From contig JBHIFL010000028.1 in assembly GCA_046761065.1 (NCBI GenBank), positions 1 through 47,578 of the forward strand: a DNA stretch of 47,578 bases, in the 5' to 3' direction. The stretch's first letter is position 1. Each line of letters opens with the position of its first letter. The translations under genes and the position numbers were made by a program. This document shows positions 3,807 through 13,888 of the stretch, piece by piece. This stretch comes from Candidatus Heimdallarchaeota archaeon (GTDB lineage: Archaea > Asgardarchaeota > Wukongarchaeia > Wukongarchaeales > JBHIFL01). The notes beneath the pieces were generated by a model. It was not told where the DNA came from. It saw nothing but the letters and a program-made list of their open reading frames with translations, and did no database searches.

Positions 3807-4170
3807 ACGAATTTCCGTATTAAATCTTTCATCAAAAGCTAGATATAATTTATATTACGTTTATAGGAGGAATCATCCTTAGGTATTAGTATCATGATTA
3901 ACATTTGTTAGGACAATGTTATTTGGTTGATGGTTATGTGGGTTGTTCATAGGGAGCATATAAACAAATGCCTTTATGATTTCATATTTTGAGATAGAAA
4001 CGTGCCAAGTAACTATTAAAAGGTTTATCGTGTCAAATTCATCTTTGAAAGTAGTATCTGTCGTTCTATCACTTTTCATAACAAATGAGGAGCTCGATAT
4101 ATCAAGGCAAACTCGTTTTATTCTGTAATGGGAGTTAACACTCATCCAAACTTACTAGTCACAAGAAAAA

Positions 4171-4400
4171 TGGTGGGGCCGCTGGGAATTTCAGCTAAAG
4201 AGCGAATAGCTCAAAGATCTTGAACCCAGGAACACTTACACGTGCAGACCTATACACTCTGCGCCCCAACTGCCCTTCAGACAGACCAAAGTAGTATTGT
4301 CTAAAGGAAGGCAGGGATTATACCGTTTCTCCTTTGAGAAAGGTTCATACCAATCTAGCCGGGACAGTTGGATCTGTTTCGGAAGCTAGACCACGGCCCC
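4171..4400 (-). tRNA. tRNA-Pro(GGG) with five BHB introns (17/17a, 24/25, 33/34, 42/43, 59/60), CCA encoded
   Basis: Removing 4353-4383, 4318-4344, 4268-4308, 4236-4258 and 4188-4218 gives GGGGCCGTGGTCTAGCTTGGTATGATCCCTGCCTGGGGCGCAGGTGTTCCTGGGTTCAAGTCCCAGCGGCCCCACCA (77 nt). Acceptor, anticodon and T stems pair perfectly. Confidence 0.9.
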
Positions 4401-4760: not shown

Positions 4761-5945
4761 TTAAAGAGTTTTTAATCTATTTTTCGTCTCAAGGGTTTTC
4801 GTTACACGTTCGAGTAGAACGGAGGCGGGGACATCGTAAAGAGTGATTCGGCTCCGTCTACCTTTACTACCCCGGATAGGACCGGTCACTATGCCGATAA
4901 TGCCTATTTTTTCAATGCGATCGAGATATTTTCGGACGGACATGGTGGAACGGGGTTTTTCATGATATTCTTCACAAGCAATGCGGTAGTTTTGTTGGAT
5001 TTCTTTGATAGTCGTGGCAGAGATGCCACTATGTCTCAATCTTCGTGTGATTGCAATCAGTGTTAGAAGTTCATGGGTTTCAAGTTCACTAAGCACATCG
5101 ATCCGGAGTTCCGGATAAATCGCGGCCTTGGCCTCACGAATATGTTCTGCGGTGACTTCTCGCGACCCCTCATAGTCTGCTAATTTACCTGCCCTTAAGA
5201 GAATCTCTATACCATGCCTTGCATTTTTCGTGTGGCTGGCAATTTCTGCCACCATTTGGATTATGTCATTAGTAATGGCTGAACCTTTAAAAGCTAAGCG
5301 AGTTCTGTACGTAAGGATTTCAACAAGTTCTTGGAGAGAGTATCCAGGAAATTCAATTTGTTCATGAATGTGGCCGGCAAGGGGGCGATCGAGTTTTGTT
5401 TTCCACTCGAGAGGACGAGAGATTAGGATTAAACTAAGACGACTGTGGCCAAAAAACTCCCCCAGATGAAAAAAGGTAAGGATATCGTCACCTTTCAGCA
5501 TAGTTGCTTCATCGAGGGCTACTAAAAGATGCATATTCTCCCCCTCGAGCCGTTTCATTAACATTTCGAGGATTTCTTCGTCACTAAACCCTCGTGTTGA
5601 AATATGAAATTTTTTACTTAGTAAATTGCGGAGGATAGAAGTCTTCGTTCGAAATGTATAGCAGTTATAATATTCATAATTGATATTCCTTCCAGATTCC
5701 TTTGCCGTCTTTGAGAAAACATCCATAGTACGCTTTGTAGTGGCTGTTTTCCCCACGCCAGCACTTCCGGTTACCACAATATTTGTTCCAAAATCTCCTG
5801 TTAGGAGAGGGCGCATACAGCTAGCAAGACGTCTCATTTCTTTTTCACGATGAGGAAGCTTTTCCGGAACGTATTCTGGGAACAGTGTAGTTTCATCCTT
5901 GAACACGCTATCTCCAAACAAGGTATCCCCTATAATGTCACTCAG
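4761..5945 (-). CDS. cdc6: Orc1/Cdc6 replication initiation protein
   Basis: YVPEKLPHRE, Walker A GSAGVGKT, Walker B LDEA and a C-terminal winged helix. Start extended to CTG 5945 (SD AGGAGG, in-frame TGA just before); the ORF track starts at TTG 5921. Confidence 0.92.
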   Translation of the reverse strand: MSDIIGDTLFGDSVFKDETTLFPEYVPEKLPHREKEMRRLASCMRPLLTGDFGTNIVVTGSAGVGKTATTKRTMDVFSKTAKESGRNINYEYYNCYTFRTKTSILRNLLSKKFHISTRGFSDEEILEMLMKRLEGENMHLLVALDEATMLKGDDILTFFHLGEFFGHSRLSLILISRPLEWKTKLDRPLAGHIHEQIEFPGYSLQELVEILTYRTRLAFKGSAITNDIIQMVAEIASHTKNARHGIEILLRAGKLADYEGSREVTAEHIREAKAAIYPELRIDVLSELETHELLTLIAITRRLRHSGISATTIKEIQQNYRIACEEYHEKPRSTMSVRKYLDRIEKIGIIGIVTGPIRGSKGRRSRITLYDVPASVLLERVTKTLETKNRLKTL

Positions 5946-6144: not shown

Positions 6145-7116
6145 TCAGGAATCACTTTCCACTAGTATCTTAATCCGTTTTAGGATAAATGAAATAATTG
6201 TCATCACAGTATCTATCTGATTGGTATTTTCTATAACTGGAAGACCAAATAGTAGGGCTTGATTGATTAAATGGTCTTGGATTTTTCGGATGTCGGCAAA
6301 ATGTTCAATATATCTGGCGGCCGGGCGTTTGACCACGACATTTTGAGAGCGCGCAAAGATTCGGGACAAATGTGAGCCTTCCTCCCTCAATTTTAAGAAG
6401 ACCACAATAACATTAGGTTTCTTGAGTAAGTGTTTGTTCAGGAGCCGTGGACACACATGAACTCCCTCGACGATCAGGCTAATGCCTTCCTCGAGGGCTC
6501 GCTCAATAATTCCTTCGATACCAGCCATCACATGCCGTGCTTGTTCTTCGAACCCCAATGCAACCCTGTCATTTGTGTGGTTTGACATAAAATTCAGACG
6601 TTTCCAAGCTGTGAATGAAGAAGCATGCAGTTCAGGAATGAGGTCCGGGGCAATAACACTCCGCATGGCTTCGCGTACAATGTCAGTCCCGAATACATGC
6701 CGGATCCCAAAGCGAAAGGCTAAATTGGACGCGATCGTTGATTTTCCGACCGCAGTAGCGCCGCCAATTACGATCACGAGGGGAATCTTCCGCTCTTGAA
6801 ACCTACGTAGCAGTTTATAATTAGTAGCCACCTCTGCAGGAAATTTTTCAATTAAAACATTGTAGATGATCTCTTCGAGTTCATTGTTGGTGATGGTTTC
6901 TAGTCCACGACCGCGAAGTTGTTTTTCGACTATTTGTCCTATGGAATGAGCTTCGTATCCTTTTAATCCAATGCTCGTTAGACTCTGCGCAAGGAGTCCC
7001 TTTGAAAAGGGCATGCTGAACTTCTCGTATTCAACTTGAACGATATCACTGGCGATAGCAGCCCTTTCTTCACTTTTCTGAGAAAAATCGACTCTTTCAT
7101 TCATTTTCTTTCCCAT
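6145..7116 (-). CDS. pgk2: 2-phosphoglycerate kinase
   Basis: ATP-cone-like N-terminus (PFSKGLLAQSL), GGATAVGKS, TDIVRE, LHASSF and IVEGVH; directly downstream of cDPG synthetase. Confidence 0.9.
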   Translation of the reverse strand: MGKKMNERVDFSQKSEERAAIASDIVQVEYEKFSMPFSKGLLAQSLTSIGLKGYEAHSIGQIVEKQLRGRGLETITNNELEEIIYNVLIEKFPAEVATNYKLLRRFQERKIPLVIVIGGATAVGKSTIASNLAFRFGIRHVFGTDIVREAMRSVIAPDLIPELHASSFTAWKRLNFMSNHTNDRVALGFEEQARHVMAGIEGIIERALEEGISLIVEGVHVCPRLLNKHLLKKPNVIVVFLKLREEGSHLSRIFARSQNVVVKRPAARYIEHFADIRKIQDHLINQALLFGLPVIENTNQIDTVMTIISFILKRIKILVESDS

Positions 7117-8473
7117 CCGATGATTTTAAAGCAATAACTCCTTTAGCCAAACGAACTAGAATATTTGAGAAAATTTCAGGGGAGATTTTCAGGGGGAGAG
7201 GGAGATTATCACAGTAGACAACACGTTTACCATCATATAAGGCTTCTTTTGTGGCAATATCCACGGCTGCGGCTTTTAATTCTGTTAATAAAATGGTATA
7301 GCGGCCTTTTGCCGCGTTGAGATCAGCTTTCAACAAGGGTCGGTTTGAGAGATTGGAACTGAACCCCACTACCTCGCATTGGTACGTTTCTTCTATATAA
7401 GAACTAATATTTGCCGTGACCACGTGAGAAGGAGCTGTTGTACAATAAAACACACATTGCCCCTTAATATTTTCTAGGGGGAACGGACGAAAGATAGTCT
7501 CAACCACTTTCACGTTCGGATTGATTTCTCTAATCCCTTTAGTTAATCGTGTAATTTCTGCTGGATTTGTTAGTGGCGCTTCACAATTGGTTATAATAAC
7601 CAACTGGGCGAGTTTGACACGATAGGGGCCGAGATAGTCTAGAACAAGGTATGTAGGACGGTTCGCACCAACCACTAATATGAATGCATTCGCAGCAACA
7701 GGTGGTATGGTAGGGCCGCTTCCCTCGAGGATTATCAAATCAACGGGGAGCTCATTTGCGAGTTGCGCTCCCCGTTTCACATTTTCCGTGAAAGGCATTC
7801 CTGCCATACCCCCGGCACATCTGCGACACCCAATAGTCCAAACACGACTTGTTAGCGCATCTTCCCAAAAATCCGAAGCCGCATGTTTCCCCTGCTCCGC
7901 AATTCGAAGTAGGAACTCGGGGGTGATCTCAATAGCATCTCCTTCCACAAGTTCTGGCTCCGCAGGTCCTCCTCGTCCCATAGTCAAAATCCCTGCGGTT
8001 ATTTCCGCCGCTTTCAGCGTCCGAGCTATATATCCGGCGATGGCGGTCTTCCCAACGCGTTTACCTGACCCAATCACACTAAGAGAAGGTTTTTGGATGA
8101 GAGTAGGAAATTTTATGGGCTTCAAAATGAAATCTGCGCCTTCGTATGTGAGTCCATGGTACAGAATACTATTCGCTAGTTTCATTCGTGCTTTGGAGTC
8201 GATGACCGGGTCATCACTCAAATCAAACACGATTTTCGCCGGATATTGTGATAAAATTGATGGCCACATGCTCTCTAAGGCATCCAAATTCTCCGGGAAG
8301 ATCATCGGGATCCCAAAGTAGGTTTCTAGATCTTCTAAGGCGCCGATTTTTTCCATCCCCCCCACAAAAACCGCCGCAACCACGGGTCGGCTCTGCGCCA
8401 ATGTGTGGATCGCGTCCTTCACGACGGGCATATAATGTTCGCCATCTACAAGTAATATGACGCCATCGTTCAC
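7097..8473 (-). CDS. cpgS: Cyclic 2,3-diphosphoglycerate synthetase
   Basis: LVDGEHY, GGMEK, DLSD, GSGKRVGKTA, MGRGGP, GKHAASD, GCRRCAGG, LEGSG and TELKAAA; likely start is GTG 8473 (ORF open from 8593). Confidence 0.9.
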   Translation of the reverse strand: MNDGVILLVDGEHYMPVVKDAIHTLAQSRPVVAAVFVGGMEKIGALEDLETYFGIPMIFPENLDALESMWPSILSQYPAKIVFDLSDDPVIDSKARMKLANSILYHGLTYEGADFILKPIKFPTLIQKPSLSVIGSGKRVGKTAIAGYIARTLKAAEITAGILTMGRGGPAEPELVEGDAIEITPEFLLRIAEQGKHAASDFWEDALTSRVWTIGCRRCAGGMAGMPFTENVKRGAQLANELPVDLIILEGSGPTIPPVAANAFILVVGANRPTYLVLDYLGPYRVKLAQLVIITNCEAPLTNPAEITRLTKGIREINPNVKVVETIFRPFPLENIKGQCVFYCTTAPSHVVTANISSYIEETYQCEVVGFSSNLSNRPLLKADLNAAKGRYTILLTELKAAAVDIATKEALYDGKRVVYCDNLPLPLKISPEIFSNILVRLAKGVIALKSSDGKENE

Positions 8474-8659
8474 AAGGGATTCCCCACTAAGACCGATAGA
8501 GCAGACAGGAACATAATTCATTGGGAGGGGAGGGAAAAAGGTATACGGTTTGATATCAACTCTGCTATCCGCAATCTTTAGTATATATACCATTTACTTC
8601 ATAAGTTTCGTGGATTTGACGAAAACAAAATGATTGTTTAAAATAGTTAAAAACAGGTA

Positions 8660-13782: not shown

Positions 13783-13888
13783 GGGCCGGTAGATCAGCCC
13801 GGAAGATCGCCTCCTTGGCATGGAGGAGGCCCGGGGTTCAAACGAAAGAAAGATGTTTTTCCTTCTGAAAATCCCCGCCGGTCCACCA
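13783..13888 (+). tRNA. tRNA-Ala(GGC) with a 29-nt intron at 59/60 (13843-13871)
   Basis: GGGCCGG/CCGGTCC acceptor with G3-U70, CCTCC-TTGGCAT-GGAGG anticodon arm, BHB TTCA AA|C...TGAA AA|T, CCA encoded. Confidence 0.95.

Follow-up and report, generated by a model that had tools for sequence, protein, structure and literature searches.

Genes for tRNA that are interrupted by several introns were reportedly described from Thermoproteales by Sugahara et al. in 2007 and 2008. The multiple-intron tRNA genes of this order contain two or three introns each (PMC4090602), and the double introns of the Thermofilum pre-tRNA-Pro are removed by an (alpha-beta)2 splicing endonuclease (EndA) equipped with a Crenarchaea-specific loop, the element that enables cutting of non-canonical introns (PMC3241643). 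Up to three ectopic and non-nested bulge-helix-bulge (BHB) introns are known from the red alga Cyanidioschyzon merolae, where the order of their removal follows motif stability or position (PMC3728597). In Asgard archaea, introns were found in 92-95% of the tRNA genes of three genomes, with up to four introns per gene among the rows of Supplementary Data 4 that were examined (Valentin-Alvarado et al., 2024; PMC11291895). Furthermore, a preprint gives "up to five" insertions for individual Asgard tRNA genes and a mean of 2.2 introns per gene in its three focal families, while stating that none of its new Asgard insertions has yet been demonstrated to be spliced in cells (Goswami, Ghosh and Sinha, October 2026; bioRxiv 10.64898/2026.10.13.758758).

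In the window, that is, the whole stretch of 47,578 nt analysed here, a tRNA-Pro(GGG) gene is split by five introns. The first-pass annotation of this DNA had assumed that tRNA genes with at most three introns were known, which does not hold against the four introns of the 2024 supplement (PMC11291895) and the five of the preprint (10.64898/2026.10.13.758758). The textbook ceiling of two or three introns per tRNA gene is outdated.

Anatomy of the tRNA-Pro(GGG) gene

As listed in Table 1, 153 of the 230 nt of the gene are intronic, and the coordinates, lengths, junction motifs and five insertion sites proposed for it in the first-pass annotation were all confirmed, as was the lack of an intron at position 37/38.

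Table 1. Features of the window and of related tRNA loci. Plain numbers are window positions; loci elsewhere are given with their handles (G, genome, with G000 the host; C, contig; L, locus).
Feature	Position	Strand	Remarks
tRNA-Pro(GGG) gene	4400-4171	-	230 nt
Exon 1	4384..4400	-	17 nt; tRNA positions 1-17; identical in four orthologues
Intron 1	4353..4383	-	31 nt; site 17/17a (D-loop); HBh' motif
Exon 2	4345..4352	-	8 nt; positions 17a-24; no change across orthologues
Intron 2	4318..4344	-	27 nt; site 24/25 (D-stem 3' strand); 4/4 helix including two G-U pairs
Exon 3	4309..4317	-	9 nt; positions 25-33
Intron 3	4268..4308	-	41 nt; site 33/34 (immediately 5' of the anticodon); strict hBHBh'; 10-bp inner helix
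Exon 4	4259..4267	-	9 nt; positions 34-42; contains GGG anticodon and G37
Intron 4	4236..4258	-	23 nt; site 42/43 (anticodon stem 3' strand); HBh' motif
Exon 5	4219..4235	-	17 nt; positions 43-59
Intron 5	4188..4218	-	31 nt; site 59/60 (T-loop); hBH motif; outer helix = T-stem
Exon 6	4171..4187	-	17 nt; positions 60-76; discriminator A73 and encoded CCA
T-rich run	4163..4170	-	abuts CCA
cdc6/orc1	4761..5921	-	upstream of the tRNA gene; also upstream in L230
Two adjacent ORFs	6145-8593	-	presumably 2-phosphoglycerate kinase-like and cyclic 2,3-diphosphoglycerate synthetase-like (by eye)
tRNA-Ala(GGC)	13783-13888	+	one 29-nt intron at 59/60; undetected by ARAGORN
tRNA-Leu(CAA)	39776-39662	-	one 27-nt intron at 59/60; undetected by ARAGORN
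tRNA-Pro(TGG), L169	G000:C1:33630	-	16-nt intron at 17/17a, near-identical to that of L170
tRNA-Pro(CGG), L170	G000:C2:20071	-	three introns; 16-nt intron at 17/17a
tRNA-Leu(TAA), L168	G000:C125:1525-1242	-	5-nt internal exon; 95-nt D-arm intron
tRNA-Trp, L167	G000:C5:32724-32466	-	parsed by hand
tRNA-Val(CAC), L166:519-1040	G000:C19:45318-45839	+	intron of about 430 nt at 59/60
tRNA-Arg-like gene, first copy	G000:C25:35729	-
tRNA-Arg-like gene, second copy	G000:C25:33765	-	2 kb from the first; ends after the anticodon arm
Freyarchaeia tRNA-Pro(GGG), L224:1501-1718	G037:C1:1798836-1799053		five insertions; 4-nt exon

The gene was spliced in silico and the product was scored with ARAGORN and a custom tRNA profile. 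The six joined exons gave a 77-nt molecule that ARAGORN accepted as tRNA-Pro(ggg), with all stems intact (7-bp acceptor stem, 5-bp anticodon stem and 5-bp T stem) and a 7-nt anticodon loop. After removal of the inserts, the cloverleaf, the conserved residues, the GGG anticodon, G37, A73 and the encoded CCA expected of an archaeal tRNA-Pro(GGG) were all present, and the mature sequence was near-identical to that of relatives with fewer introns. The T-rich run next to the CCA is probably an archaeal terminator. As had been anticipated for standard tRNA finders, the unspliced gene was detected neither by ARAGORN nor by the Rfam model RF00005.

The junctions were assessed by means of a BHB definition comprising 3-nt bulges and a 4-bp central helix, in which exon positions -6 to -3 pair with intron positions -6 to -3. 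All five junctions had a complete (4/4) central helix, and their motif classes differed. Assignment to the canonical classes (hBHBh', hBH or HBh') further requires at least one flanking helix with at least two contiguous pairs, a rule that introns 1, 3, 4 and 5 satisfied. Intron 2, having one contiguous flanking pair per side, is the weakest of the five motifs in this genome by the two-pair rule; it is stronger in the orthologues L227 and L229, where its inner helix is unbroken. When the introns were shuffled, each of them reached a 4/4 helix in 1-3% of trials, which gave a joint chance of about 7e-10. Every junction has two or three equivalent registers that this figure does not take into account; they weaken the estimate somewhat, not decisively.

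A blind search of the whole genome, which was given no location and used a tRNA profile built from the genes of relatives together with pair scoring and jumps permitted at BHB-like junctions, recovered this gene at a score of 67 and parsed it into the same five introns, and the same profile yielded no hits on the reversed genome. The five-intron parse stayed best when jumps without any motif and as many as seven introns were permitted, and a class II tRNA parse of the locus scored lower. None of the five introns had a significant match elsewhere in the genome, and we saw no sign of within-genome intron copying.

Orthologues and the host tRNA set

A pattern scan of metagenomes recovered four contigs bearing the gene, namely L227, L228, L229 and L230. 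In L229 and L230, which belong to other assemblies, the same five introns occupied the same sites in a syntenic setting, the neighbouring genes and flanks being 77-88% identical to the window. L227 contained the first three introns before its contig ended, and L228 had three introns only, reading uninterrupted across the 24/25 and 59/60 junctions. The gene of Sifarchaeum subterraneum (L186) carried four introns; it shared the 17/17a and 24/25 sites with the present gene and was uninterrupted at 33/34 and 42/43, where its adjoining exon sequence is unchanged. Intron 1, found in L227-L230 and with its site also filled in L186, was in turn missing from two other Asgard Pro(GGG) genes (L175 and L176), in which the 17/17a site was empty. 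Taken together, L228, L186 and L175/L176 thus provide every one of the five junctions with an empty-site allele, and removal of the introns restores the uninterrupted gene of the relatives.

Mis-assembly was accordingly ruled out by the five introns of the syntenic L229 and L230, given their 77-88% flank identity. The bin does contain 8.2% contamination, which might have favoured an assembly artefact or, failing that, a chance parse of structured intergenic sequence; however, the same architecture in independent assemblies largely refutes the former, and the empty reversed-genome control and the lack of a second copy of the introns in the genome also speak against such an origin, whose probability we consider negligible.

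Across five close orthologues, exon identity amounted to 94-100% and intron identity to 60-88%, and 82 of the 84 central-helix cells were paired. In these five related sequences, five pairs had changed on both sides, whereas shuffled sequences gave 1.7 such pairs and slid controls 0-1. Three pairs with changes on both sides lie within the inner helix of intron 3, and one of the five spans exon and intron, since the pair of exon C38 with a G of intron 4 is T-A in L228. With five related sequences, this covariation lends modest support to the predicted helices and is not conclusive.

The protein Cdc6, encoded just upstream of the tRNA gene, has its relatives in Asgard genomes. At the cdc6 locus, two genomes of the same order were identical to contigs of Wukongarchaeum yapensis and of the MAG DZ1B.339, and a quick Cdc6 tree grouped the window protein with those of W. 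yapensis and DZ1B.339 (SH-aLRT 90). Judging from these sequences, the host is an Asgard archaeon of the order of Wukongarchaeum that forms its own family among the genomes compared. A scan for related loci with Cdc6 alone returned no match. In three Heimdallarchaeia (L011, L117 and L120), cdc6 is closely followed by a Pro(GGG) gene that has no intron or a single one and lies on the opposite strand, whereas both genes are on the same strand here. The contig of L230 linked the start of the window contig (G000:C28) with the end of C50, suggesting that these two contigs are adjacent in the genome.

The host genome is a 4.42-Mb draft with 91.5% completeness, in which ARAGORN detected 17 tRNA genes and RF00005 only 12 above its cut-off. 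Our own searches and hand parsing brought the number to about 45, of which three were intronless, with roughly two introns per gene, as a hand tally and not a validated annotation. The host therefore has a heavily interrupted tRNA set of the Asgard kind, most of its genes containing introns and many of them several. The Pro(GGG) gene has the most introns in the genome, followed by Pro(TGG), Leu(TAA) and Trp with four each, and none of the tRNA genes found in it exceeded five. The commonest site among the tRNA genes of this genome was 59/60, and the sites 17/17a, 33/34 and 59/60 were common to all three Pro genes. Several other candidates were discarded. On contig C125, an ARAGORN call of Pro(tgg) and one GGG parse of that locus both turned out on hand reading to be a mis-parsed two-intron Thr(GGT) gene, and parses with six to eight introns on contigs C65, C104, C19 and C143 relied on long forced jumps, local inspection leaving zero to three introns.

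Some of the other tRNA genes showed features of their own. Box C/D guides are known from archaeal tRNA-Trp introns, and the 37/38 intron of the present tRNA-Trp gene likewise contains one, complementary to the anticodon arm of this same tRNA, with weak matches to Rfam sR3 and sR40. The long D-arm intron of tRNA-Leu(TAA) includes a C-box-like word and gave no Rfam match; it is possibly a guide RNA. The large intron of tRNA-Val(CAC) contains disrupted reading frames, in one of which there is a LAGLIDADG-like motif (LNFDGSIT). A Pfam search with the frame fragments gave no match; such frames possibly indicate a route of intron arrival. The second copy of the tRNA-Arg-like gene is truncated in a way that recalls an integration site or a repeat in the assembly.

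Only one Pro(GGG) gene was present among the roughly 45 tRNA genes tallied, as the first-pass annotation had asked to be checked, although in a draft assembly a second one could be unassembled; intact genes for tRNA-His, tRNA-Ser(GGA) and tRNA-Sec were not found in the searches of this draft genome either. One may consider the locus as a pseudogene or an unspliceable relic, with the CCC and CCU codons decoded by another tRNA-Pro, as genes for Pro(TGG) and Pro(CGG) exist, the genome is a draft and the motif of intron 2 is weak. However, the exons were nearly invariant while the introns had drifted to 60-73% identity with pairing kept, the searches gave no further Pro(GGG) gene, and the CCA and all stems were intact, so that we regard a relic as highly improbable. 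With great confidence, we instead take the locus for the real and probably functional tRNA-Pro(GGG) gene of the host, whose introns would be removed by EndA and RtcB.

Splicing enzymes and possible order of intron removal

The genome encodes two EndA-family proteins (PF01974/PF02778) and one RtcB (PF01139), i.e. both the endonuclease and the ligase needed for BHB introns. The alpha-like EndA aligned with the catalytic subunit of the Aeropyrum pernix enzyme (3p1z_B, E 9e-41) over a region spanning the Crenarchaea-specific loop with its lysine as well as the catalytic triad of Tyr, His and Lys, all of these positions being retained. The host EndA is thus predicted to be of the broad-specificity (alpha-beta)2 type, a heterotetramer of the catalytic alpha subunit and the second paralogue, in agreement with the broad-specificity endonuclease postulated earlier for this locus.

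Cleavage by EndA followed by joining by RtcB is established chemistry in archaea (PMC4090602). In the present case, the 230-nt gene body would be transcribed, and each intron would fold together with the final six bases of the preceding exon into a BHB-type motif, at which the (alpha-beta)2 EndA would most likely cut after the second base of both bulges; RtcB would then ligate the exons, and the cloverleaf would be able to fold after five such rounds. The introns are likely to be cut and joined one at a time because the exons of 8-9 nt would otherwise be held by a few pairs only, and free micro-exons arise only if two adjacent introns are cut before ligation.

No nesting was apparent among the introns: every central helix involves the exon that immediately precedes its intron, no nucleotide is common to the five central helices and bulges, and no motif appeared to form only after removal of another intron. 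In structure predictions, all five motifs could be enforced in one fold lying 13 kcal/mol above the predicted minimum, and the predicted cost of holding a motif open was 1.8 kcal/mol for intron 5, 2.9 for introns 1 and 3, 3.9 for intron 4 and 5.0 for intron 2. As the unspliced transcript can accommodate all five motifs, splicing need not follow a set order.

An obligatory order, in which certain motifs would have to await the removal of a neighbour and the short exons would be released as intermediates, nevertheless deserves consideration, as exons 2-4 are close to the smallest usable size, the minimum-energy fold zips or shifts the bulges of introns 1, 2 and 4, and non-nested motifs are processed in order in C. 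merolae (PMC3728597). We think it unlikely, because the motifs have no nucleotides in common and are enforceable together, and the opening cost of motifs 1, 2 and 4 was almost unchanged by the presence or absence of the other introns; orthologues without introns 2 and 5, or without introns 3 and 4, also exist, an arrangement that a hard-wired order would not favour. The earlier proposal of ordered multi-step splicing with micro-exon intermediates was hence overstated in its obligatory part, and a kinetic order remains conceivable. Any such order in the removal of non-nested introns may be biased by motif stability, as the predicted opening costs weakly suggest and as was observed in C. merolae (PMC3728597), with the T-loop intron perhaps leaving first and that at 24/25 last.

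Geometry would set a limit to further insertions. An internal exon presumably needs 7 nt to serve two adjacent motifs (one bulge base, four helix bases and two bulge bases), and since exons 2-4 exceed this minimum by one or two nucleotides, no further non-nested intron would fit between positions 17a and 42. It is tempting to combine these points into a single reading, by which the gene stands at the geometric BHB limit, strict one-at-a-time coupling of EndA and RtcB is forced upon it, and the gene may evade tRNAscan-SE and therefore also the published census. Were this so, six-intron genes could exist undetected in this clade and the published census may not cover the family; as a whole, however, we hold the combination to be doubtful.

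Comparison with known multi-intron tRNA genes

A full-text literature search for five-intron tRNA genes brought up no archaeal paper among the matches listed. The present case contributes the lineage, the escape of the gene from two standard tools and the natural allelic series; as to the lineage, the word "Wukong" is absent from the main text of the preprint (10.64898/2026.10.13.758758). The intron-rich phenotype is hereby extended to a family in the order of Wukongarchaeum, and its sister family (G001), with one intron in a likely Pro(GGG) gene, looks less interrupted than this genome. The case leaves knowledge of the splicing mechanism itself unchanged. Nature nonetheless supplies alleles with three, four and five introns that encode almost the same tRNA, and the motifs are clean at every junction; this series is thus a good substrate for testing Asgard EndA/RtcB splicing, its order and the coupling of cutting to ligation.

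Among the systems described previously, C. merolae differs in its eukaryotic enzyme, in having at most three introns and in that its processing was seen by RT-PCR, whereas here it is predicted from the gene sequence. The Thermoproteales genes are alike in having BHB and relaxed motifs at non-canonical sites and an (alpha-beta)2 EndA with the Crenarchaea-specific loop; in contrast, intron families are common to several tRNA types there, and here the introns have no significant copy in the genome. The resemblance to the published Asgard sets is closer, including several short non-canonical BHB-type introns per gene in the D-arm, anticodon arm and T-loop, an EndA of two paralogues and genes missed by annotators, the difference being the lineage, a family in the order of Wukongarchaeum.

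The nearest counterpart is the Pro(GGG) gene of Freyarchaeia, for which the 2024 data list three introns (PMC11291895). Spliced here as five insertions, it gave an ARAGORN-valid tRNA. The first-pass annotation had suggested that five introns may be a record; with this gene and the "up to five" of the preprint (10.64898/2026.10.13.758758), the present number is a tie and not a record. The two genes have the number of insertions and the 24/25 and 59/60 sites in common. Some junctions of the Freyarchaeia gene fall outside the simple BHB motif, which suggests nesting or relaxed motifs, whereas the gene described here has a full 4-bp helix at all five junctions and no nesting.
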